Source: Octopus vulgaris (lineage: Eukaryota). From it: a stretch of DNA of 64,000 bases. Where the stretch lies: assembly GCA_951406725.2 (NCBI GenBank), contig OX597826.1:82956001-83020000 (forward strand), written 5' to 3'. This document shows positions 1-64,000 of the stretch, piece by piece (the stretch's first letter is position 1; each line of letters starts with the position of its first letter). Position numbers and translations under genes: made by a program. The notes beneath the pieces were generated by a model that saw only the letters and a list, made by a program, of their open reading frames with translations, had not been told where the DNA came from and did no database searches.

Positions 1-383
1 CTTAACGGAGTTGCAAAACTCAACGTTGATGTGACCATGGAAACGATTGGGCAGTAGAGAAGAATCCATCTATTATCAACCTCGTGCTGTCCGATAGTTG
101 CTGTGAAACCGCCGTCTTCTGTCTCTGTATGATGGATACCCATCAGCACTTGTCTGAGTTTCTTGCAGGAACCTCCTTGGAAACCTTTTCGAACTTACGC
201 TGTCTTTCAAGCATGGTGAGTTTATATTGAATCCACGCCCACGTGGACCATGCACCATATTTGCATTAACTATTTCGAATAGTACTTTGTGTAAAGCTGG
301 ATCAGGAAGCTCTGCAGAGATTATCCTCTCAATGTCAGTGGATTTGATCTTCGTTGAGAGTCAAAGCAGAATATGAGCATTAT
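1..383 (-). mobile_element. Helitron RepHel fragment (Rep/HUH region), degenerate
   Basis: Minus strand reads NAHILL*...IERIISAELPDP...LFEIV..NMVHGP..N.NSPCLKD..SKRFP..F..ET....DGYPSYR. This matches the Helitron Rep motifs (HAHIL; MIHGPCG..SPCM; DGYPxYRRR). It has an in-frame stop and is cut by a SINE. Confidence 0.85.
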
Positions 384-490
384 AGGCTTACAAAGAATAA
401 GTCGTGGGGTCGATTTGCTCGACTAAAGGCGGTGATCCAGCATGGCCACAGTCAAATGTCTGAAACAAATAAAAGAGTAAAAGAGTAAAT
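384..490 (+). mobile_element. SINE 3' fragment
   Basis: GGGGTCGATTTGCTCGACTAAAGGCGGTG..CCAGCATGGCC followed by an AAAAGAGT tail; reverse complement of part of the copy at 1322-1800. Confidence 0.75.
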
Positions 491-901
491 GCAGCCAAGG
501 AAGTAGCATCACTCTTTATATTCGGTTTAAAGTTATGTATAAGTGTTAAAGATCTTTGTTTAAAGTTCATAGAGTTTATATATAACGTTCAGCCTCCTCC
601 ATTTGCCTTCTCAAGGACACGATTTTTTTTTCCTTTTCACATGTACAATATTTAGTTGTATGTTTCTGTTCGGTGGTTTAAGATTTAATGGTGTCATGAT
701 TATTTGTTATGGTGGGTGGTGTTATGTTTGAATTTGTTGTGGAATCATTTATAATAGAATTTGTATCTTATTATTATTAGAACTTTTTAAATAATCATAG
801 TAATCCTTTATATATTTATCTATTAATAAAATATTATTTATATTATGGACGTATCTCTACTGTGATTTTTATGATATAATTTTTCCTACTTTTACGTTCT
901 A

Positions 902-919
902 ATATATATATATATATAT

Positions 920-1000
<81 letters not shown>

Positions 1001-1005
1001 TATAC

Positions 1006-1036
<31 letters not shown>

Positions 1037-1239
1037 CATATATATATACATATATATATTTATATTTATATATACATATATATACATATACATATATATA
1101 CATATAAATATACATATATATATATATATTAATATTTATACATCCATATATATATAATTATAATTATATATACATATATGTATAAATATATATATATATT
1201 TATATTTATATATATATACATATTTATATATGTATATAG

Positions 1240-1299
<60 letters not shown>

Positions 1300-1322
1300 T
1301 ATACATACATATATATATATAT
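902..1322. repeat. (TA)n/(TACA)n compound microsatellite
   Basis: Direct inspection. Confidence 0.95.
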
Positions 1323-1555
1323 ACTCTTTTATCTTTTATTTGTTTCAGTCATATGACTGTGGCCATGCTAGAGCACCGCCTTTGGTCGAGCAAATCGGCC
1401 CCAGGACTTATTGTTTGTAAGCCTAGTACTTATTTTATCGGTATCTTTTGCCGAACCGCTAAGTTACGGGGACGTAAACACACCAGCGTCGGTTGTCAAG
1501 AGATGTTGGGGGACAAACACATGTACACACAACATACACAGAAACATGTACACAC

Positions 1556-1638
<83 letters not shown>

Positions 1639-1800
1639 TACGGCGGGCTTCTTTCAGTTTCCGTCTACCAAATCCACTCACAAGACTTTGGTCGGCCCGA
1701 AGCTATAATAGAAGACACTTGGCCAAGGTGCTACGCAGTGGGACTGAATCCGGAATCATGTGGTTCGTAAGCAACGTACTTACCACACAGCCACTCCTAT
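1322..1800 (-). mobile_element. tRNA-derived SINE with internal microsatellite
   Basis: Minus-strand head with A-box-like TGGCTGTGTGG and B-box-like GGATTCAGTCCC, then CCTTGGCCAAGTGTC and an AAAAGA tail. Related copies lie at ~12030-12220, ~42200-42540, ~45380-45790 and ~52610-52800. Confidence 0.8.
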
Positions 1801-10945: not shown

Positions 10946-11099
10946 GTAACATTGAAAAATACCTTAGGAATGAGAACCCAGGTTCGAAATTTCCCCAAGA
11001 CACCTGAAGAAGGCTGGAGAGTATATCAGCCGAAACATTGAGTTAACAATAAACAAGTTGAGGACAAATATCCGTCGAATGTAAATAATGTAAATAATG
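10804..11099 (+). mobile_element. tRNA-headed SINE with internal (AAT)n and a hammerhead-like 3' part
   Basis: A box TGGTATAGTGG 10811-10821, B box GAGTTCGATTCC 10854-10865, (AAT)n spacer, hammerhead-like core, short tandem tail AATGTAAAT x2. Confidence 0.75.
10999..11044 (+). ncRNA. Minimal type I hammerhead-like motif, probably decayed
   Basis: ACAC-CTGAAGA-A-GGCTG..CAGCC-GAAAC-ATT-GAGT. Core and stem II are intact; stems III and I have mismatches. Confidence 0.6.
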
Positions 11100-11187: not shown

Positions 11188-11248
<61 letters not shown>

Positions 11249-11393
11249 AGTAGGTGAATGAATTATCCTATGTTTATCGTCAGCATGGAAAATTCGTTTA
11301 ACCGAAACCTGGGTAGCAAGGTTATCATTATCGCTTTGTTTACCATGTAGGCAATCATCGAAACTTTTGTTTGTCTTGTTGTCGAGAGAGGAT

Positions 11394-11487
11394 CCCTTTC
11401 TTTCCTGATGAGAAGATTGCATAATGCACCCTTTATTCCTTTGGAATGAAAATATGCTGTCTTCGAAACATGTGTCGAGAGTAAAGG
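11394..11487 (+). ncRNA. Type I hammerhead ribozyme with intact core
   Basis: TTTC-CTGATGA(11405-11411)-GAAGA..GCATA....TATGC..TCTTC-GAAAC(11465-11469)-ATGT-GTC^GAGA. Stem II is GAAGA/TCTTC plus GCATA/TATGC. Stem III is the palindrome ACATGT. Predicted cut after 11476. Confidence 0.85.
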
Positions 11488-11526
11488 AATTTTGTTAACA
11501 TCTTCGTTCGACTCCATTCTTTCATT

Positions 11527-11582
<56 letters not shown>

Positions 11583-19740: not shown

Positions 19741-20987
19741 TTAGGTTGTCCCAAAAATAATGGCCGCTCTAAGTGTAGTGATTTCAAACGCAATTTTATC
19801 ATAGCATTTTAATGATATTTTGGGTGAATTCCTACATACTTAATAATTGATGTATGCTCTTTAATAATTTTCTACTTATTTCAGACAGAAAACATTCTTG
19901 AAGCAGAGGCGCCTTTAATTATAAACATGACCAAAAAAGATCTTCGCTTACTTTTCTTGCATGGGTCCGATCTTGGGCACAATGCCTCCCAAACTGCTGC
20001 CAATATCAACAGAGCATGGGGTGAGGGGTCCACAAGTGATCGCACAGTACGATGGTGGTTTCAGAAATTCCGTAGAGGTGAGGAGAGCCTTGAACATGAG
20101 AATGGTCATGAAGTCTTGACAATGAACAATTGAAAGCAATTATTGAACAAAACCCACGTCAAAATGTCAGAGAAATGTCTCCGGCACTTGATGTTGCTAT
20201 TTGCAACAGTCTCACGCAATCTGCAGGTGTTTAGTAAGGTGAAAAATCTCGATATAAATGGGTACCGCATGAGTTCAATGAAAATCAAAATGTTCAACGT
20301 TTTGAAGTGTGCTCGATGCTCTTTCTGCGAAACACTAATGATCCTTTTCTTCAACGAATAGTCACTTGTAACGAAAAGTGAATCCTTTATGATAACCGTA
20401 AACGATCAGGTCAATGGCTTGATCGTGATGAGTCCCCCAAACATTTCCCAAGACCAAAGTTGCATTAGCAAAAGATTGTGGTGACTGTCTGCAATTGGTG
20501 TTGTCCATCATTGCTTTCCGGAAGCCAATCAGAGCATTACAGCAGAGGTTTATTGCAATCGACTCGCTGAAATGAGAGCTGCATTAGTGAATCGGCGTGG
20601 CCCAATTCTGCTCCATGATAATGCACAGTCACATGTTGAAAGAATGACGCTGCAGAAACTTACAGACTTGGGATACGAGACTTTACCACATCCTCCATAT
20701 TCTCCTGATTTTTCACCCACTGACTACCATTTTTCAAGCATTTAAACACGTTTTTAAGTGATAAAACTTTCAGATCCAAACGAGAGAGGGAATCAGATTT
20801 CAAAAATTTCTTAGCAGCAAAGCCAATACGTTTTTATCAACGAGGCATAAATAATCTCGTTGACCGATGACAAAAATGCATTGATGTTCACGGCTCATAC
20901 TTTGACTAATAAAAACATTTCTATTGTTAATTTTTCCAGAATAAAATTATAGTTCTGAAATCGGCCATTATTTTCGGAACAACCTAA
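19741..20987 (+). mobile_element. Full-length mariner transposon (cecropia/Hsmar1-like), inactive
   Basis: TA-flanked TIRs TTAGGTTGTCCCAAAAATAATGGCCG / CGGCCATTATTTTCGGAACAACCTAA, length 1247 bp. Confidence 0.92.
19927..20908 (+). pseudogene. mariner transposase, frameshifted
   Basis: MTKKDLR..TAANINRAWGEG..RTVRWWFQKF; WVPHE; VTCNEK*ILYDN; LLHDNA; HPPYSPDFSPTDYH. Confidence 0.9.
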
Positions 20988-24339: not shown

Positions 24340-25060
24340 AACCTGGGAATTAATTCTCGGCTCATGGAATGTTAGAACACTGCTAGATAGTAAAGAGAGA
24401 TTAGAAGACAGAACTGCTCTAATAGCCAGAACACGCAGTAGATACAAATGAGCGAGTTGTGATTTGCCGAAGAGGCTCAGTTAGAGGAGATCAGCGTGTG
24501 CTATTCTTCTGCACTCAGAAATCCAAAAAGGAGCCCAGACAAGCAGGTGTAGGTATTGCATCAGATCTCAGCTTGATAACAAGCTCAACTCACTGTCAAA
24601 AGGTATTAATGAATGTTTCACAATATCCAGCATGAATGGATGAAGCTAAAGAAGCTTTCTGTGATGACTTCAGTAGAATAATTAAAGGAGAGCCATACAA
24701 AGACAAGATAATCCCCCTGAAGACTAAGTCCCCAGTTGGTGAGGATGACCCTACATGGAAGCAAGTACTAGGAAGGCACCGCATTGGAATGAAGAAGCTT
24801 GATGGTGGCCTACTCTTAAGCTAAGAATTACTAACGCAGTCTTCTGACAAACCATCAAAAGAGGCTGAGTGCAAGCCAGATTAAGCGAATGGCTTCTGAT
24901 TGAATATGTGATTCTATTGCAGGGAGCCCACAATGGTTTTTACATTGTACGCTTGCTAGGGGTGCGGACTGCTGGTCAGACCACCAGCTAGTCAAGAGCA
25001 TCATACCCTGAAACAACCTAGACATAGAACCAAACCTGTAAGGAGGTTCAACATATCTCC
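24340..25060 (+). mobile_element. RTE-clade LINE APE endonuclease fragment
   Basis: WNV*NTLLDS-like start, RTALIART, QLEE, GVGIA, WKQVLGRHRIG, RGADCWSDHQLVKS. Confidence 0.7.
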
Positions 25061-27029
25061 ACTCAAGGCAAAGGGAAAATGTACTGAACAAATGGACACC
25101 CCGAACAAAGCCCTGATATTGATTACTCTTTCCGACAATCAACACTAAACAGATATATATATGTGTGTGTTTGTGTATGTACGTGATGTATTTTTGTGTG
25201 TGCGTATATATGTGTGTGTAATTCACTAAGGAGAGAAGCTACCAAAAGCTAGCATGGTTGACCCCGCGTTTCTTCAAATGATTGCCTCCTTACATCAAAG
25301 AAACGTGTACTTTGCTCATATTTCGAGGGAGATTTTTATGTCACGTCTATTGCTAAGTGACAGCTTGATTCTGGTCTTGTTTCGCCATTCAAAACAGCTC
25401 ACACATTCTAAAGCCCTATTGTATTTGCTCAAAAGCCAGATCCGCTTCCGAAATGAAATGCTGCTCCTACGTTTAGATTCCTTTCTTCAATCGCCTTTTC
25501 TACTCTACGGAATGAATCGAGTCGTACTTCATTTGGAAATTATCTCTTCCCCCACCCCATTGCTAAGATGTTCCTAGTTTAACCCATTTCTTCAATGGTA
25601 ACTATCCAGAATATTGATTCCTCTCCTTATCGGAAGTCACTTGGCCAAATTTGGTGTAAGGCGTCCGTGATTCCTGAAGATTTACCGAAGTAGCGGCAGA
25701 TTACATGCACAAAGCGTTTGACTGCAGGACTGCTGAATAACGAAATAAACTTTTTCAAGTGCTTACCTCAGAACCGAACTTAATCTCATAAAATCCAGGC
25801 TTAACAATCACCTAGTTTAATGACAGCAGTTTCTTTTAATGAAATTATTTTATCAGATCTTTGACAATTATCTCATTTAATTAGCTCCTTTATTGTCACT
25901 TCAGTTACTCGATGTCACTGACATCTGTTCTCTCTGTCAGTTTTTTTTTATTACTTTATCATTATATTTTATGTATTTAATCAATTATTTTATTGCCATA
26001 TTGTACTTATTATTCTAAACGTACATAGACAGGTTTAGTGGCATTATCACCGCACCTCATTCTTCCACATTCTCTAGAAATATCATCTGTGCCTTGCAGG
26101 GAGGATTTTAAACCAAAACTTTTATATGTATGCTTGTATGGTTGTGTGTGTGTATGTGTGTACCTGAATGTGTGTATGTGTGTACCTCTCTCTTAAACAA
26201 ACAACAAAGAAAAGAAAAAACACACATGTATGTGCGTGCATATATATAAAGAGAATTTTGCATTTATAATATAAATTTAATAAAAGAAACTGAGAAAATA
26301 GAGCGACATTAAAAAAAACAACGGATATTTAAAGGTTTGAGAGACAAGGCAAGCAGTATGTCTAATTATTGAGAAAACTGTTTGTCTGAAAGAAATCGGT
26401 AAAGTAGAGTGTGATCGTCATATGATCAAAACTGTCACGTATGTAAAACAATTTTATTCTTATATTTTCTTCCATTTGGAAGAGGGAATCATTTTCATTT
26501 AATATTTTAACTTTTTGGATGCGATAAGCGGTTTAAGATATTTGAATATTCTAAATTGTTTATGCATAGAAGATACAAACACTGTAGGAAAAGAGATTGG
26601 AAAATGATTTTATAGCATTCTGAACTGCGAAACAGTTCAGGTCTGCTGGAATGGTTTGGCAAAACACATTAATCTGCTTTTAGTGATATAGTTTTGGGTT
26701 ATTAGATTTAAAATTCCAGCTAAATCTAGATCTATATTGACAAAATCGTATATGCATTTCTTAGTTGAAGACGAAAACGTCTAAAAATCTTGGTTGTCAC
26801 GATACATCGTTTCGTAACTGTTCATTTCTACCGAAGTGCAGTAAATGAATTCGTTGTATTTCTATTTACGGTCAAGCGGATATTGATTCGGGCGATTGCC
26901 GCCGCTACAAGTTTGTGACTGTTGCACCGAAGAAGACGCGATAAGTTTCATGCAAATGTTTGGACTTGAGCGGGACCGAGTGTCTAGACGACAGGTAGAG
27001 AAGTGAGTGGTGGGGTGATGCAAGAAACA

Positions 27030-32574: not shown

Positions 32575-34220
32575 AACCCCGTTAAACAGTTAAAAGAGTG
32601 CAAGTTTTCATTAATTGTTGATGGAACTACTGATGTAAATACAAAAGAAAAAAGGTTTGTTCTGCTAGCAAGATTTTTATGATTGTAACACTCAAAACAA
32701 ATTATTGATAATTATTTAATTCTTTTGGAATTTTGTCCTCTATTGAAAGATTCTTCACCTTACATGATATTCCTTTTGAAAATTTGATAGGCTTTGCCAG
32801 TGACAATGCTAGAGTAATGATGGGACAGAAGGGAGGTGTGCAGGCATCACTAAAGAACAAAGTTCCCTCTCCCTTTATTCAGGGTCGCGTCAGTCACTCT
32901 ATGCATATCTATGCACATCAAAGCATGTTCAGAATTACCTTCATATTTAGAAGAACTTGCTAGAAGCATATATTCATTCCTCTCAAATAGCCCAAAGAGA
33001 CTGCAGTAACATGAAGAATTTCAGGCATTTACTCAAATAAATCTTCATAAATTATTACATATAAGTTGCAATACTAGAACTACTACTACTGCTGTTATTG
33101 AAGATAACAACAGTGCACCGTCAGATATGCTGAACTCATTAACAAATCCAATCACAGAGATGTATTATGCATTTTTAGCATATATTTTGCCAGATATTAT
33201 TAAGTTGAACTTATATTTCCAATCAGAAAGCTATAGAATGCACAAACTACACAAATCTATTACATGTACTGTTAAGGGAATACTTGGCAATTATGTTAAA
33301 AAAGAAATTGTGAACAAAATAAGAGCTACAAGAAATTAACATCAATGATGCATCAATGTATCTTCCCATAACTGAAATTTAGAGAGGAGCAAAAGTTGAA
33401 AGCATCTACAAGAAGAAAGCTTCATCTATTAATACAATTGAACTGAAAGAATTTCATGTAAAAACATTTAATGTTTATGTGCGTCTTGGGAAGGGATTTT
33501 TCAGCGTTTCTTCCGTAATCTGAAGTTTCTAGAGGTACTAGACTCAGTTAGTAATCGTGACTGCAATGGTCCGAGTTCAATTGTTCCTCTGGCATGCGAA
33601 TTTCCAAATATTGTTCAGGAGAGTCAGGATGAAACTCTTAGTAAGGAATGGAGAGAACTTAAACTTCAAGATAACAATGACATGACTGAAACTACCAAAC
33701 CAAAAGATTATTGGTATAAAATCTCTGAGGAAAAATGTGGAAATGGAGCTCTTTACCCGGTGTCATCATGCTTTATGTTTCAGCTCCTATCGTTACCACA
33801 TTCTTCCGCTGAGAGAATATTTTCAGTTCTAAATAACATCAAAGTCAAGAATAGTTCTAACTGCATACGAAAACAATTAATGCTCGGCTACATTCAAAAA
33901 GTCTTCATGATGTAAACTGCACAATTTATATACCCGACGCAGAGCTTTGTGCTAAATTAAAAGACGGACAAGGACATTGGTACAAAGAAGAACCTCACCC
34001 TGTTGACGATGCAACCTCCTGATTATAAAATAAATATATTAAATATGTGTAGGTCCCTTTAAAATAAAGCCCTGTATATTATAAATAATATATATTAAGT
34101 ATTTCACTTGATTTATAGGCGAAATATTAAAATTTTAAATTTTGGTACACTTTGAGCAAAATTTGGTACGTTTATTATGCTAAATCTGGTACTTTCATCA
34201 AAATACATTTGACAAGCCTG
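32575..34220 (+). mobile_element. hAT transposon relic, 5'-truncated
   Basis: FSLIVDGTTDV; LIGFASDNARVMMGQKGGV..SHSMH; LLSLPHSSAERIFSVLNNIK (hATC dimerisation motif); subterminal TTTGGTAC repeats; 3' end TTGACAAGCCTG. Confidence 0.85.
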
Positions 34221-44810: not shown

Positions 44811-45255
44811 ATTATCCAACACACGCACACAACGTATATGCTCTGCTTGTTCGCCGGTCGGCTGCGATTTGACGCGGTAGAGATGACTCTCACAAAGCGC
44901 CGGGTTTTAAAACAGCTGAAAGTCACAGTCATGGACAGGTTAGACGACTAACTCCAAGTCCCATTTAGGAGGGATGGGCATCGATGTTTCTCCATTTTTG
45001 TGATTTAACAACATCGCGTACATGAACCGAAGCAGAGACAAATTGCATGTGCCTCTCTATGACTATATTAAAAATGGTTTAACAGCTGTGATGCCCGAAC
45101 GATGTAGACGGGAGCGGAGTTGTTTGGCTGTCTATAAATATGAATTTTAGGTGTTTTAACGCGCGGTACTTCGAGAGAGTCATCTCCGCCGCGTCAAATC
45201 GCAGCCGACTGACGAACAAACAAAACACATAGATTGTGTACGTGTGTTGGATAAT
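44811..45255. mobile_element. MITE with ~80-bp imperfect terminal inverted repeats
   Basis: ATTATCCAACACACG..GTCGGCTGCGATTTGACGCGG.AGAGATGACTCTC and its reverse complement at ~45175-45255. Confidence 0.8.
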
Positions 45256-47374: not shown

Positions 47375-49310
47375 TCGTTTCAAGTGCTCCTACAATCACT
47401 GGTACAGTAACCGTCCTGCGATGTCACATTTTTTCGATTTCAATCAGAAAATCTTTATATTTTCTGAGCTTATGAAATTCTTTTGCTGAAATATTATGAT
47501 CACAGGGTATGCTTATGTCAATCGATAAAGAGTTTATTGTTTTGGTCTTTCACAACAATATCTGATTTATTAGCTTTGACGGTCCGCTCTGTACATACAG
47601 GAAAGTCCCAAAGAATCGATATAGTTTCTCCTTCAGTTACAGCCTCGGGATGATGCTTATAGTCAGCAATTTTTATTTTATAATGCCGACATATCCAGTG
47701 TAGATATTGGCCAGCTCTGTCATGTCTGAATTTATTCTCTACTGCTGCTAAAACCTTACACCCAGAGATTAGGTGGTCCACTGTTTCAATTTCATCGTTG
47801 CAGTATCGGCACTTTGGGTCTGCTCCATTCTTCGTCCCGTTGGCTTGATAGTTCTGGATCATTAAGCTTTGATCTTGGGCAGCCAAGATAAAGCGTTCGC
47901 TCTCAGCCAATTGTTCAAACGCTTTTTGCTTTACCATTGACTTCACCTTCTCTGCAACAACAGTTGCTGCACTTACATCATGCTGTTCAATCTGGATATT
48001 ATGCATGGACTCGTTAATAGAACTTTTGCGCTCCTTCATGACAGAATGAAGCTTCTTATGTCTCTCGTTGTTTTCAACGAGTTTTTGCATCCAGTCTTTA
48101 GATGTTTCAAAATATTTCGCCTTTCCAATTCTGGTGGTTTTGCATTTTATTGCAAAGCATTAGCTTACAGATTTTCCTGTAAATCTTAATTCGCTCATAT
48201 TCCAGTTCAATACATTGGAACTATAGATAACAACTGGAACTGCTAAAGAATTTATAGCTAACACCTTGCTACGTGCATTTAAGTCGGATTTGGGGACGGT
48301 TCGATCTCTCCTGTAACATTCCGTTCTGATCTTCTCTTACCTGTTTGCATGTTGAATGCCAGATCCCTCATTTATTTCGAGGTATTTCTAAGTTTTTTCC
48401 TGCTCCAGTTGTTTTATGATTGTGTCAACATATAACACCACTGAATGTGAGGTCTTCAATTTCAAAGACCAAATTCCATCCCGATGTCACCACTGACTGC
48501 TTTCGCAGGCAATAAACCTTCAAGCTCATTATCGCCTTTGCCATAGAGTTCTAAGTCATCCATATAAAATAGATGACTTATTCTCTTTCTTGTGGCCAAT
48601 TCTATACCCATACCTTCAGGAAGTTTGAAATCACAGGAGATATTTTGAAGATATCCAGCGATTTCAAGATCCATGAATGCGGTATGCTGTCAAAGACCAT
48701 CTTATAATGAATCCTTGCAGGAACTGAGATTTCTGCGTTTGTTATGACAGTTCTCAAAGACCAAGTGATTGATCAAGAGTTGGTTTTTGCATCTACATGA
48801 ACCTCGTCGGCACACCCTTTGTTTAGTGGCAAAAAATGGTTCTATTCCATAAATTTGTATGATTCCTCCACGAGGATGGATGTTAAAATGTTATACGTGG
48901 CAGATAGACATGTTATGGGCCGATAGTTTTGGAGAAATTTGGTTTCATTATTCTTTGGAAGTAGATGAGTAATTCCTGTTGCTAAACAATCAGGATTTCC
49001 CTTAAGATCTCTCATAATTTCATTGAATAACTGAACTAACTTTTCGCCTGCGCACGGGAACGATGCGAACCAGAAATCTGGCACTCTATCATAACCAGTG
49101 GATTTCTACTTATGAGCCTTTGTGAGTGTCATCCTTAGGTCTGCTTTTGTGATGTCTTCCCATGCCAGTTCTGGTAAATTTTGGTTGGATCCGTCTGTGC
49201 GTCGAATGCAGTCTAAATTTTTATTACATGTCTTCATCACTCCAAACAATTTTCCAAAAGTTTTCAGCTTCTTCCCTGGGAGGTTTCTCTTCTCAAATCT
49301 TCGTATTCTT
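47375..49310 (-). mobile_element. R4/Dong-clade non-LTR retrotransposon relic (RT, CCHC, RLE)
   Basis: NYRPITCLSATYNILTSI; ISHLFYMDDLELY; ILAAQDQSL; CRYCNDEIETVDHLISGC..RHD; ILWDFPV.T..TVKANKSDIVV. Confidence 0.9.
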
Positions 49311-49840: not shown

Positions 49841-51132
49841 CGAAGGACGTTCAATAAGTAATGTCTCTGACCCACTTGCTGATGTTTGATCTAGCTGAAG
49901 TTTTGCATGTGCAATCATTGATATCTCTATAGAGTAAGTGGCAAATTACAGCACTGAATTAATTGTGGTTTCTGATTTACAGGTGTTTGAACCGAGTCAA
50001 GTGTTAAATGGAGCCTGTTGAGTGTCGAGCAGTGATCCGGTTTTTGTATTTGAAAGGACGCACACCACGGGAGACTTTTGATGAAATGAAAATAACTTAT
50101 GGTGATGATGCCCCATCATATGACCTTGTAAAACGCTGGCATCGTGAATTCAAATATGGTCGGAACTCTGTGGAAACAGCTCCCAGATCTGGTCGCCATC
50201 CTACTGCCATTGATGAGGCATCTGTCCGTCAAGTTGAGGCTGCCATTTTGGAAGATCGACGCATAACTATTCGCCAAATAGCCCATGAGGTCAAGATTAG
50301 TACCGGGTCTGTGGAGACTATCATTCATGACCATTTGCATATGCAAAAGGTATCTGCCAGATGGATTCCCAGGTTGCTCACATCTTTCCAGAAGCAAGAA
50401 CGCGTCGAGTGCTCGAGGATGAATTTGGAGATGTGCCAAGAAGATTAGTCAAACTTTTTCAAAAGACTGATTACAAAGGATGAGACCTGGGTCCTTCACC
50501 ATGATCCAGAGACCAAAGCCCAGTCAATGCAGTGGAAGCACCATGACTCACCTCCTCCAAAGAAGGCAAGGGTGCAGCCCTCCGCTGGCAAGGTCATGCT
50601 CACAGTCTTCTGGGACCAGGACGGAATAGTGATGACAGATTTCCTGGCAAAGGGTACCACAATTACAGGAGCCTATCATGCTTCACTTTTGAGGAAATTA
50701 AGAGAAGTTATCAAAATCAAGAGGCGGGGCAAGATCAGCAAAGGCATCCTCCTCCTGCAGGACAACGCTCCGGTCCACAACTCGCTTGTCGCCAGATCAG
50801 AAGCACAGACGTATGGCTATGAACTCCTCCCCCATCCCCCTACTTTCCTAACCTTGCACCCTCTGATTTTCACCTCTTCCCAGACATGAAGTTGTTTTTG
50901 AAAAGAAAGCGTTTCCCAGATGATGCAGCCTTGATTTCTGAAGTCGCGTTCAGGTTGGAGGACCAAGCTGGGGTCTTCTATAAAAACGGTCTCCAGAGCT
51001 GCATCAAACAATGGGAGAAATACGTAACTCTGGGTGGTTCCTATGTAGAAAAAGACTAATAACTGTGCCAAGTTTCATTGCTCTACTGCTATGGGAAGTG
51101 GGTCAGGGGCATTACTTATTGAACGCCCCTCG
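49841..51132 (+). mobile_element. Full-length mariner transposon (irritans-like)
   Basis: TA-flanked TIRs CGAAGGACGTTCAATAAGTAATGTCTCTGACCC / GGGTCAGGGGCATTACTTATTGAACGCCCCTCG, length 1292 bp. Confidence 0.95.
50008..51059 (+). pseudogene. mariner DD34D transposase, nearly intact
   Basis: RAVIRFL..; WIPRLL; ITKDETWV; GKVMLTVFWD; LLQDNAPVH; HPP motif. One TAG at 50446 and a frameshift near 50840. Confidence 0.93.
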
Positions 51133-59994: not shown

Positions 59995-60500
59995 GTTTAT
60001 ATATATGTATATATTTATAGAGTGGGTGAGAGCAAAATAATATATAACACACAGTGGTGCTCAAAAGAATGCGAACATAAATTCTAACTTCGTCATCCAT
60101 ACTCAGGTCTACGACCATAAGAGCAGTCCTAATCGAGCTATTATGGAAGTAATAAGATGGGTGTGCCAATCTGCTCTTGAAAAAGTAATCTTAACCATTT
60201 CATCTGCACTTGTCACGTATGACTCAATATATACGCCACCTGCAAATATGGCTGTTATGTAACATTGGTGCTAGAAACAGGTTTCGAGATAAAACAACAT
60301 ATTTTCATTATATATATATATATATATATAGGTTATAAAATGAGATAGGGGTTGAAAATTCAACCCACCATGGGATAATATATATCCAATATACTGCCAG
60401 ATAGGTACCCAACAAGATTAATACATAGATGTTAAAAATTGTCAAACAATCAGTTCATCAAATGTATTATATGGGTAAAGGTAATAATATTACCGTAAAT

Positions 60501-60891
60501 TAATACTACAAAATTAGAGAATGGAGAAACATACTTAAATCAATAAAACATCAACTATCCGATGATACCCAATCAATATTTTAATACACCATTACATATG
60601 AGTAGAGGCATTATACAAAAAGAGATATACATTAATAGTAAAAAGATAAAGAGATATAAGTAAAAAATTTCAAATATAATATGCAATTAATCAAAACTGA
60701 CAGCTGTTTCGGCAGTGAGGGCAGTCATACCTCATTTAACCTATAAGCCATAAAGGCAGGTATAAATGAGGCATTAACAAGGATGCCCCACGGCCTCTTC
60801 AGAGAATTAAATTAAATTTGTTATAATTGTGAAAAATATTATATAATCATATACATATAAATATAAAAATATAAAAATGTAAAATATAAAA
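60501..60891. repeat. Left arm of 391-bp inverted repeat
   Basis: Reverse complement of 63416-63806; only 2 mismatches found by eye. Confidence 0.95.
60685..60812 (-). ncRNA. Type I hammerhead ribozyme with extended stem II (sense to the GIY-YIG ORF)
   Basis: Reverse-complement copy of 63495-63622; predicted cut 3' of C at 60699 on the minus strand. Confidence 0.8.
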
Positions 60892-61139
60892 ACTTATACA
60901 TCATAATGCTACACTTATATAACATAATACACATTGGTACAATAAAGGAAGGTAAACAGAACAAAATAAAACAAAATATATATCAGTGTATATATTAATA
61001 TTAATAAGTACCGATATTATACATATTTGGCTAATATTTTTTTTAAAAAAACCTAACACATAGGGAGATGAAAAATAATAATTAAAACCATGGTTCAGTT
61101 CATAAAATTCTAAAGCTATAAAAGTTAATAAAAATTACT

Positions 61140-61212
<73 letters not shown>

Positions 61213-62905
61213 GATACAGTTAAGTTTGCACAAAGTCCATCCTTTCAAGAACGAAATAACTATGAGTTTAGAAATGCTGACCAGTAGGTAAAGAAAATTT
61301 AGATTAATTCGATTGGCTATTGGTTTGAAATTTAAATCACAAAAGAAAATTATACGGTTGGTTAGTCAAGGAACGCCAATATTCACACACGCATCTACAG
61401 ATCAATCGCACATACACACATAGTTATATGTATATACATACACTTATACGCATACATAATCACAAGCAACAACTAGCACATAGATAAACAAAAAGGGAAG
61501 CAACTATGCTACCATTTAGTCCTTCAAAATTATAACTGTGCCTCAAATACCGAAAAAGAACCATCCATGCCTTTCATAAAATATTTAATTTAGATATAAA
61601 TATATTTTTAAATATCAGTATGTTACTAAGTCAGATAATTATTTCATGGGTAACTTAAAATTTATAACACCGGTTTGTTGCATAGTAAACATACGGTTGT
61701 TAGATTTATCGTAAGTTTGTTATGATTCCAAGTACGCTAAAATATAAAATAAAAAATATAAAATATATATTAATTTATATATTATAAATAAATCACATAT
61801 TTACTTAATAAATTTAATGCCATAATATACCAGTTTAGGTATTAAAAAATAGAAGGGGAAGTACTAATGTAAACGCTTATGAGAACATCACAGAAATTTT
61901 TAAAAATTTATATTATAAATACTTAAGATAAAATGCGATAAAATAAATAAGAAGGAATAAACACGAAGGAATAAATACGGTTATACACATATTATAAGTA
62001 CAAACCAGTATATATGTATACATATATTATTAAAATTTAAATAAAAATAAATGATAGATATGTATGTATAAAACTACCCTAGTATAAGTAAATAAGTAAA
62101 AAATAAATAGATAACAAATTAGATGACTTGATATGTATGTAAACATCTACACTTAAATAGGCAAATAAATAAATAATTAGAAGACTAAATGCAGAGATTG
62201 ATAACAATACAATAAAATAAAAAATAAATAAAGTGAATATATATGTTATATTGTTGAAGGTAAATATGTATGGAAGGATAATTTAAAGTACAGATCCAGA
62301 GGACTATAGATATAAACTAAATATATAAGGCTGGTAATATTTATAAAGCCAAATGTATGTAAATGAAAAAATGAAAAAAATGAAAAAATGAAAAAGGTTT
62401 ATTAGTAAATAGCATAAGATACAAATTAAGGTGAGTACAAAGAAAGACCAAATATACAATAAAAACCTTCCAAATAAACACATACAAAAAACCTATATTC
62501 TCAACCTAAACACACCAAACTCATAAAAGGCTCTCCTATATTACATATTATACAATAACATTACATTATCTAGAGCTAGGTATCTAACCAAGATATACAT
62601 ATATACTATGCAATATACTATGCAATATTAGAAAACTTCAAAAATCACATATTACAAGGCAAATACCAAAATGAATATGTTATTTCCTGTCATATTACAT
62701 TTACCTTAAAAAACAAACAAAAACCCACATACAAAAACAAGAAACAAATAATACTAGACACATCTATTATTATTATACAAATGTAGCTATAAAAATTATA
62801 AAATTATAAATTTATAAGTTGTATACTTTAGAATTATAGAAGACCACAGGTATAGTTAGTTAAAGAAGGGAGTTAAAAAATTAATAATAGTGGAAGTGCT
62901 AAGTT

Positions 62906-63415
62906 CTATTTGAATCTAGAAAAGGTGAACGGTAGCCTATGAATGCAAAAGAAGTTTTTTTCATTAATGTTGTTAATAATTTGCCGACCCGCTTTAATAA
63001 TGAAAAAAATTTCATTAATACATAGAGAGCATTTTTTATTTTTTCCATTATACACAGGTGCTGAAGTTAGTATTTTCCAGTTTAATCTAAAATCCAAGTT
63101 CTTACTTTTAAGTTCCCAAATATATGCACTAAGCCCTGTAGAGTACATTCTATTTTTATTTCTAAAAGTATATCTGTGATAATTCAATCTTTGTTTTATG
63201 CTATTCATAGTTGCCCCGATATACACCCTACTACTCAATTGTGTATCTACAGTGCATTGGTAAACTACCTCCTTCCTGAGGCATTGATTACCAAATACAC
63301 ATTTATTTTTGTTTCTGCAATTACAAAGATTAACAGAATGAGGAAATCTAAGATTGGTCTCCACCCCTATACTACCATTCACATTATAAGTGTTACAATT
63401 GTTATCATCATCCAA
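62906..63415 (-). CDS. GIY-YIG endonuclease domain of a Penelope-like element; open frame, probably 5'-truncated
   Basis: CNCR..C.FGNQCL..EVVYQC...YIGAT..IKQRLNYH...TGLSAYIWELK...W.IL...Y....CSLCINE..I...IINN..E...CIHR. The called start is a TTG exactly at the inverted-repeat junction. Confidence 0.85.
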   Translation of the reverse strand: MDDDNNCNTYNVNGSIGVETNLRFPHSVNLCNCRNKNKCVFGNQCLRKEVVYQCTVDTQLSSRVYIGATMNSIKQRLNYHRYTFRNKNRMYSTGLSAYIWELKSKNLDFRLNWKILTSAPVYNGKNKKCSLCINEIFFIIKAGRQIINNINEKNFFCIHRLPFTFSRFK

Positions 63416-63801
63416 TTTTATATTTTACATCTTTATATTTTTATATTTATATGTATATGATTATATAATATTTTTCACAATTATAACAAATTTAATTTAA
63501 TTCTCTGAAGAGGCCGTGGGGCATCCTTGTTAATGCCTCATTTATACCTGCCTTTATGGCTTATAGGTTAAATGAGGTATGACTGCCCTCACTGCCGAAA
63601 CAGCTGTCAGTTTTGATTAATTGCATATTATATTTGAAATTTTTTACTTATATCTCTTTATCTTTTTACTATTAATGTATATCTCTTTTTGTATAATGCC
63701 TCTACTCATATGTAATGGTGTATTAAAGTATTGATTGGGTATCATCGGATAGTTGATGTTTTATTGATTTAAGTATGTTTCTCCATTCTCTAATTTTGTA
63801 G

Positions 63802-63806
<5 letters not shown>
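63416..63806. repeat. Right arm of 391-bp inverted repeat
   Basis: Reverse complement of 60501-60891. Confidence 0.95.
63495..63622 (+). ncRNA. Type I hammerhead ribozyme with extended stem II
   Basis: CT-CTGAAGA(63505-63511)-GGCCGTGGGGCA..ATGCCTCATTTA..TAAATGAGGTAT..TGCCCTCACTGCC-GAAAC(63597-63601)-AGCT-GTC^AG; palindromic ACAGCTGT stem III. Confidence 0.8.
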
Positions 63807-63848
<42 letters not shown>

Positions 63849-64000
63849 AGTTTCAGCTTACAGCTGAAAATATGTTGTTTTATCTCGAAACCTGTTTTTA
63901 GAACCAAATATATACGTTCTTATTATTATTTTGCAATTTACTTAATCATCGGTATATTATTGTTATTTTAATTTAAATATTTCTATTATATGTAATTTTC

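Follow-up and report, generated by a model that had tools for sequence, protein, structure and literature searches.

A truncated GIY-YIG endonuclease cassette of Octopus vulgaris, very probably a recent inverted insertion of a Hydra-clade Penelope-like element

A 64,000-nucleotide stretch of the Octopus vulgaris genome (GCA_951406725.2, contig OX597826.1, positions 82,956,001 to 83,020,000 of the forward strand; hereafter the window, with positions counted from its first letter) contains a GIY-YIG endonuclease frame enclosed by an inverted repeat. The unit at 60331-63806 is very probably a one-off, recent insertion of a Penelope-like element (PLE) of the Hydra clade that is both 5'-truncated and 5'-inverted. 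This architecture is known, and the unit is ordinary apart from an unusually long 3' region. The original prediction of a recent, 5'-truncated, TA-associated Penelope-like insertion with an inverted pseudo-long terminal repeat (pLTR) was supported by the arms, by the start of the frame within a linker, by the flanking (TA)n, by comparator loci, and by published precedent.

Architecture of the cassette, its endonuclease frame, and its hammerhead motifs

The two 391-bp arms (Table 1) are reverse complements with exactly two mismatches (60579/63728 and 60876/63431), as against the approximately two first reported. The arm-arm divergence was 0.5% (95% interval, 0.06-1.8%), and every other inverted match of more than 150 bp within the window was only 67-80% identical. 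This divergence says that the insertion is young, although errors of the reverse transcriptase (RT) or conversion between the arms can bias such an estimate. On the minus strand, the parts follow one another in the order antisense arm, truncated open reading frame (ORF), spacer, sense arm with hammerhead, 170-bp extension, and TA run. It is apparent from this order that the left arm represents the normal 3' end of the element and that the right arm represents a shorter, inverted second copy. The unit thus holds two copies, of 3085 bp and 391 bp, in opposite orientation. The AT-rich spacer, predicted at about 2 kb, measured 2014 bp at 23% GC. The claim that (TA)n lies on both outer flanks holds for the whole unit; the left arm itself is separated from the TA run by 170 bases that are present on that side only. 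No second copy of the cassette or of the 170-bp extension was found in the window.

Words sampled from 61215-63800 were looked up in sequencing runs. Among the 24 runs listed (9 studies, 3 organism labels), 20 contained 0.34-0.75 of the words, small data sets included. These fractions indicate that part of 61215-63800 is widespread, and they do not tell which part. No RNA data set was among the runs listed, which carries no inference on expression.

The minus-strand frame comprises 172 codons from stop to stop (63424-62909); 169 of these fall inside the junction, the first being TTG at 63415. A run of 169 open codons is expected by chance at the local composition at approximately 2e-7 per start. 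The ORF list, the alignment, and a check of the residues (C31-C33-C39, Y52, Y65-I-G67, R76, H80, C129-C132, E135, and C157-H159) bore out the stop-free 169-codon GIY-YIG frame with its key motifs, as well as the start with TTG exactly at the junction. The first in-frame ATG encodes residue 70, three residues past YIG (65-67), and only TTG and GTG precede YIG; the start codon for a whole endonuclease (EN) that an EN-only family requires is therefore absent. Endonuclease is probably not produced from this copy, which would be incapable of autonomous movement.

An exhaustive protein search with the window endonuclease detected 4202 relatives at E <= 0.001. Residues Y52, Y65, G67, R76, H80, and E135 were conserved in at least 90% of 95 aligned relatives, and a structure model built from this 95-sequence alignment had a pLDDT of 89.4. 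In addition, the Atlas neighbours of the window protein (0.96-0.97) were clusters named GIY-YIG. The Y, YIG, R, H, E, and N residues and the fold of the GIY-YIG superfamily were all present. Other searches were less productive. Foldseek with the endonuclease model placed T4 EndoII, UvrC, and I-TevI in the top rows, none at an E value of 0.001 or better, and Pfam gave no family for the window protein. A word-index protein search with this single query gave five candidates, none of them significant; this search is insensitive here, since the close relative P0002 (see below) sits in the same collection. When 173 relatives were compared with the window by tblastn, no credible RT or second EN was found beyond the frame (8 weak rows, E 0.006-0.024), and the spacer gave no match to these proteins. 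No match to an RT was found downstream of the endonuclease stop in the window.

Table 1. Features of the cassette and its surroundings in the window, and of three comparator insertions (positions of L043, L032, and L046 are their own)
Feature	Position	Strand	Basis or remark
Possible target-site duplication (TSD) of the older outer stub, AATATATACG	60226..60235	+	exact 10-mer
29-bp one-sided extension of outer stub, resembling the PLE tail of 30-40 bp (PMC3846280)	60236..60264	-	putative assignment
Left arm of outer 43-bp inverted repeat, probably part of an older fold-back PLE stub in which the cassette sits	60265..60307	.	41/43 match
(TA)11 left flank	60309..60330	.	sequence
170-bp one-sided 3' extension of direct copy, with 8-bp hairpin at 60349-60366	60331..60500	-	putative element origin
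Direct (sense) pLTR-like arm, oriented like the ORF	60501..60891	-	inverted-repeat comparison
Hammerhead motif of type I, stem II branched and of 85 nt, stem III palindromic, cut predicted after 60699	60699..60802	-	pattern and folding
Non-coding spacer, sense strand T-rich, (AAT)23 at 61143-61211	60892..62905	-	long 3' untranslated region (UTR) or captured host DNA
5'-truncated ORF: 30-residue Asn-rich linker, Hydra-type GIY-YIG endonuclease, stop	62906..63415	-	ORF, homology, motifs, model
Head-to-head junction of two 5'-truncated copies	63415..63416	.	arm boundaries and strand composition
Inverted pLTR-like arm, repeating the 3' end of the element in shorter form	63416..63806	+	inverted-repeat comparison
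Hammerhead motif mirroring the left one, predicted cut after 63608	63505..63608	+	pattern and folding
(TA)20 right flank	63805..63845	.	sequence
19-bp palindrome with 7-bp arms, inner end of outer stub	63851..63869	.	sequence
Right arm of outer 43-bp inverted repeat	63865..63907	.	41/43 match
Second copy of possible 10-bp TSD, abutting right outer arm	63907..63916	+	exact 10-mer
L043 inverted insertion	41-1676		junction in RT N-terminus; internal RT deletion
L032 inverted insertion	111-1364		junction in thumb
L046 inverted insertion	321-1134		junction in linker just before CxC

The predicted hammerhead on each strand was recovered as a motif by pattern and folding. Rfam at its gathering score gave no match anywhere in the window, and the hammerhead call rests on these two approaches. 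The pattern was used in a relaxed form, which detects both window copies; requiring four stem II pairs misses the motif. The region folded far better than shuffled sequences (z -5.3), chiefly through the long stem II. Stem III is self-complementary (ACAGCUGU) and of the palindromic dimer type, and PLE hammerheads with such a stem III are reported to cleave poorly and to depend on dimers (Cervera and de la Pena 2014, PMC4209133). The constrained active fold had a predicted energy of -39.9 kcal/mol compared with a minimum of -46.6 kcal/mol, a difference of 6.7 kcal/mol, and the arm-arm duplex over the ribozyme segment was predicted at -277 kcal/mol compared with -47 for the local fold. On either strand, the antisense arm would be transcribed first. 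Because the antisense arm comes first, the duplex outweighs the local fold, and stem III is of the dimer type, any transcript reading through the locus would be more likely to adopt a panhandle that sequesters the hammerhead than to be cut. Thus, of the two properties proposed for a read-through transcript, the panhandle of about 390 bp is retained as a prediction, and the working self-cleavage site appears doubtful.

Placement in the Hydra clade, relatives, and comparator loci

The published signature of the Hydra clade consists of CxCX5C, CxxC and CxH around E and N, absence of CCHH, insertion into (TA)n, and a canonical 3' hammerhead (Craig et al. 2021, PMC8557442). In the window endonuclease, CxCX5C was found ahead of the GIY-YIG domain as C31-N-C33-RNKNK-C39, and CxxC and CxH were found around E135 and the following Asn as C129-C132 and C157-I-H159. 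The CCHH motif, with two Cys inside the GIY-YIG core, was absent, and there is a single Cys between Y52 and YIG. As in the published elements, (TA)n flanks the unit and the sense strand carries a hammerhead motif 3' of the ORF (60802-60699), this motif being unmatched by Rfam. The RT carrying DKT and RWK, fused N-terminally to the EN, is missing from the window copy and present in relatives of 31-43% identity; the closest relative, P0001, reaches the RT thumb only. Since the Cys pattern (CxCX5C, CxxC, and CxH without CCHH) matches the Hydra signature, the endonuclease belongs, by its motifs, to the Hydra clade.

On the other hand, the Nematis-like family first proposed was not confirmed, as neither the CX2-5CxxC linker nor the CCHH motif of Nematis was found. 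The endonucleases of Nematis, Neptune, and Naiad share with that of the window a Cys-rich linker ahead of GIY-YIG, but theirs is CX2-5CxxC, with CCHH and two Cys in the core, whereas the window has CxCX5C and one Cys there (PMC8557442). Naiads share the preference for (TA)n and the occurrence in octopus; in contrast, they are described as having no canonical hammerheads and an EN at the N-terminus (PMC8557442). A Naiad or Chlamys element was rejected, because a stop follows the EN with no RT downstream, so that the EN is not N-terminal to an RT, and because a hammerhead is present, unlike in Naiad. A DNA transposon with terminal inverted repeats was ruled out on the motifs and the hammerhead orientation.

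Within the Hydra clade, Penelope-13_HM provides a published case of an inverted copy truncated at its 5' end, both strands bearing a hammerhead (PMC8557442 supplement). Hydra-1_Obim, compared by eye, differs in its hammerhead and shows no Asn-rich linker in its alignment row (PMC8557442). The family in the window is probably different from the single octopus Hydra family listed in that paper.

The best match of the window protein was P0001 (56% identity, E 7e-34); P0002, labelled as an Octopus bimaculoides GIY-YIG protein, was 57% identical. The 30 residues before CxC include 7-8 Asn in these three proteins compared with a median of 3 in 110 matches. Upstream, P0001 has a 133-residue linker preceded by a segment that aligns with the RT thumb in P0126, a full-length RT-EN protein (E 2e-6, pairwise); the same segment gave an E value of 0.01 with P0083. 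Because P0001 runs from the same Asn-rich linker up into the RT thumb, the window frame is seen, by this comparison, to start inside an RT-EN linker. A YRDD core was found in 7 of the best 150 matches, one of them from Argonauta hians. Among the 13 RT-bearing relatives examined, the Hydra RT marks DKT near the RT start and R-x-RW[KR] occurred in nine and four, respectively. A metagenome scan with the octopus-type alignment gave 474 pattern matches and no relatives. Short database proteins of 160-200 aa were considered as evidence for an EN-only family and discarded, since 25 of 55 short-start matches begin in an ordinary thumb-to-EN linker. As a separate observation, the long Asn-rich linkers of the octopus-type proteins P0001 and P0002 recall the Asn-rich inserts of rotifer Penelope elements (PMC3846280).

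Metagenome contigs were scanned with 20 Hydra-type endonucleases, and 79 loci were kept from 492 confirmed matches as comparators. An RT core was present upstream of the endonuclease in 35 of the 79. Three loci (L043, L032, and L046) had a 5' inverted copy, each with a different junction; all three had Hydra motifs, and two had no RT core. Inverted matches of 66-70% identity (L013 and L042) and antisense motif hits (L047, L051, and L068) were excluded from this count. The plan of L032 is that of the window, namely TA, a one-sided extension of about 60 bp, an inverted hammerhead arm, an ORF without an RT core, a direct arm, and TA. These three loci indicate, at the level of sequence, that RT-less inverted cassettes arise in the Hydra clade with variable junctions. 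Inverted 5'-truncated copies are common among PLEs (PMC8557442). Of the 79 loci, 55 had the relaxed hammerhead pattern downstream of the endonuclease, at a median distance of 155 nt from the stop; the other 24, many of which are incomplete, had none.

Proposed origin of the cassette and alternative explanations

A Poseidon-clade protein was reported to cut and extend both strands of AT-rich DNA in vitro and to start reverse transcription at two internal RNA sites, the gap between which equals the tail, hammerhead cleavage not being needed (Frangieh et al. 2024, PMC11167929). If this mechanism is carried over by analogy to the Hydra cassette, a full-length RT-EN master elsewhere in the genome would supply RNA and protein, and its endonuclease would nick both strands at an AT-rich site. 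Both nicks would then prime reverse transcription close to the 3' end of this RNA, at start points 170 nt apart; one cDNA would stop in the linker after 3085 nt and the other after 391 nt, and repair would join them head to head. The RT part was probably never copied. Similar products are known from the Penelope families of Adineta vaga, which include 5'-truncated copies between inverted pLTRs with a one-sided tail, a 9-10 bp TSD, and junction palindromes, as well as Asn-rich RT-EN inserts and long spacers ahead of the 3' pLTR (Arkhipova et al. 2013, PMC3846280). These belong to another host and other families, and their pLTR includes the start of the ORF, whereas the arm and extension in the window gave no coding match. 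The cassette would offer a clean snapshot of two-ended priming in the Hydra clade. Its value is otherwise modest; it suggests that octopus has a young Hydra family whose linker is Asn-rich, whose 3' region is very long, and whose hammerhead stem II is oversized.

Several observations weigh against an ordinary Hydra insertion. The remnant alone measures 3085 bp without an RT, whereas Hydra elements are generally shorter than 3 kb in full (PMC8557442), a tendency that is not diagnostic. The distance from stop to hammerhead is 2104 nt, far beyond that in the comparators (within 400 nt in 54 of 55), stem II spans 85 nt compared with 10-28 nt, and the extension of 170 bp exceeds the published PLE tail of 30-40 bp (PMC3846280). 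Profile searches for longer and for near-length relatives, which are weak searches (4 matches each), detected no full-length master of the family; apart from P0001, which itself has no RT core, no match of the profile searches exceeded 43% identity. In addition, the comparator loci are from other animals, with an inverted copy in just 3 of the 79. Finally, the frame is intact, which recency explains and selection would explain as well. As for the length, the full-length master is likely to be 5 kb or more, because the remnant without an RT already reaches 3085 bp. Recently active Penelope insertions of O. vulgaris average approximately 5.5 kb (329 insertions, 1.80 Mb; PMC13282606 Table 1).

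The long 3' region could also have been acquired. The spacer, and perhaps the 170-bp extension, may be host DNA captured by this copy or lineage only, a tentative possibility that is compatible with the proposed insertion and would change the origin of the spacer only. Pen1_Av elements carry unique captured spacers of 0.9-1.5 kb before the 3' pLTR (PMC3846280), and the UTRs of the comparators are short. Furthermore, most sequencing runs held only 0.34-0.43 of the sampled words, near the share of that stretch taken up by EN plus arm (about 0.35), possibly by coincidence. On the other hand, A exceeded T on the plus strand in every 200-bp bin of 60001-63000 and the bias reversed beyond, so that it runs unbroken through arm and spacer and flips at the ORF and junction, as in one T-rich transcript; moreover, long Penelope families of the size given above exist in O. 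vulgaris. The strand bias fits a single T-rich sense transcript but is not proof that the family includes the spacer.

The cassette might instead be a recurrent, non-autonomous unit without an RT, in which the inverted structure arose once and a Hydra RT-EN has copied it in trans by way of its pLTRs. This is consistent with the ability of pLTRs to mobilize intervening DNA in trans (PMC3846280), with the intact frame, and with the wide occurrence of the sampled words in 20 of the 24 runs, but such an occurrence is equally expected of an ordinary multicopy family. The frame starts within a linker and has no ATG before YIG, its TTG falls at the junction by coincidence of frame, the junctions of the comparators are variable, and the window holds no second copy; we therefore regard such a unit as unlikely. 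Just as improbable is its extension to an octopus Hydra unit that perpetuates itself without an RT, being copied whole in trans with 2 kb of captured DNA and able either to express endonuclease by non-AUG initiation or to provide double-stranded RNA directed at its own family. The endonuclease-only module that the original prediction had offered as an alternative is likewise disfavored by the sequence comparisons, in which the frame starts in an RT-EN linker, the relatives carry an RT, and the comparator junctions vary. If the junction did recur genome-wide, it would define an endonuclease-only PLE class, and no such class was found in the literature searched (mostly listings and passages), apart from stand-alone endonucleases in Terminons. 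Non-LTR retrozymes and non-autonomous PLE derivatives similarly consist of hammerhead-bearing pLTR sequence without an RT; they differ in being tandem non-coding units, whereas the window has an endonuclease remnant and inverted arms (10.64898/2026.07.22.740005).

A probable outer fold-back stub and other features of the window

Outside the TA runs, a second, 43-bp inverted repeat, absent from the original prediction, brackets the cassette. Its alignment score was 76 compared with a maximum of 30 in 500 shuffles. The possible 10-bp TSD gives modest support, as a 10-mer shared with the right stretch occurs in 2.8% of 5000 stretches drawn at random from the window. Taken together, the outer repeat, the 29-bp extension, the possible TSD, and the 19-bp palindrome likely represent a small fold-back PLE stub. 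The stub arms differ at 2 of 43 positions and the cassette arms at 2 of 391 (Fisher p 0.05); on this basis the stub is probably older, and the cassette is likely to have landed in its centre. Read outward, the stub contains a CGAAAC-CT-GT-T stretch that resembles, by eye, the 3' half of a hammerhead.

The sequence TTTCA is repeated at 60303-60307 and 63851-63855. It is conceivable, and very unlikely in our view, that the (TA)n runs arrived with the insertion or were made during it, TTTCA being a 5-bp duplication around TA-cassette-TA in the centre of a perfect fold-back stub. Such an origin agrees with the 5-mer repeat and the 19-bp palindrome, and it would account for a TA array at the stub centre that is otherwise unexplained. 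However, a stub natively carrying the 19-bp palindrome yields the same 5-mer repeat, and palindromes occur at PLE junctions (PMC3846280). Six extra bases lie between TA and the 5-mer, this is a single locus, and Hydra families are reported in (TA)n (PMC8557442 supplement). It is still less probable that the inverted arm is an assembly artefact or a DNA-level fold-back duplication: such structures, here observed in an assembly, trouble assemblies (PMC8557442), but the two arms are not identical (two differences), the inverted arm runs into a separate (TA)20 followed by unique flank, the geometry matches L032 and published PLE insertions, and the outer stub with its possible TSD brackets the whole block.

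Further hammerhead-like sequences lie elsewhere in the window. A 283-bp piece between two (TA)n arrays at 11247-11529 has a full hammerhead pattern (11405-11476, stem II span 53 nt); it may be another TA-associated PLE end or a retrozyme-like unit, and it weakly matches the outer stub (E 0.014). At 11004-11044, a hammerhead-like CTGAAGA...CGAAAC follows shortly past an (AAT)n run and is probably the end of a third PLE family. An imperfect palindrome of 445 bp, 67% self-complementary, was found at 44811-45255.

Two abutting open frames of 146 codons each were found at 50008-50886 (+); by resemblance of motifs, they may represent a mariner-type transposase interrupted by a single stop. Frames at 33010-33912 (+) and 19828-20130 (+) resemble, by eye, remnants of hAT-type and mariner-type transposases, and those at 47521-48159 (-) and 24858-25238 (-) resemble C-terminal parts of non-LTR retrotransposon proteins, again by eye.

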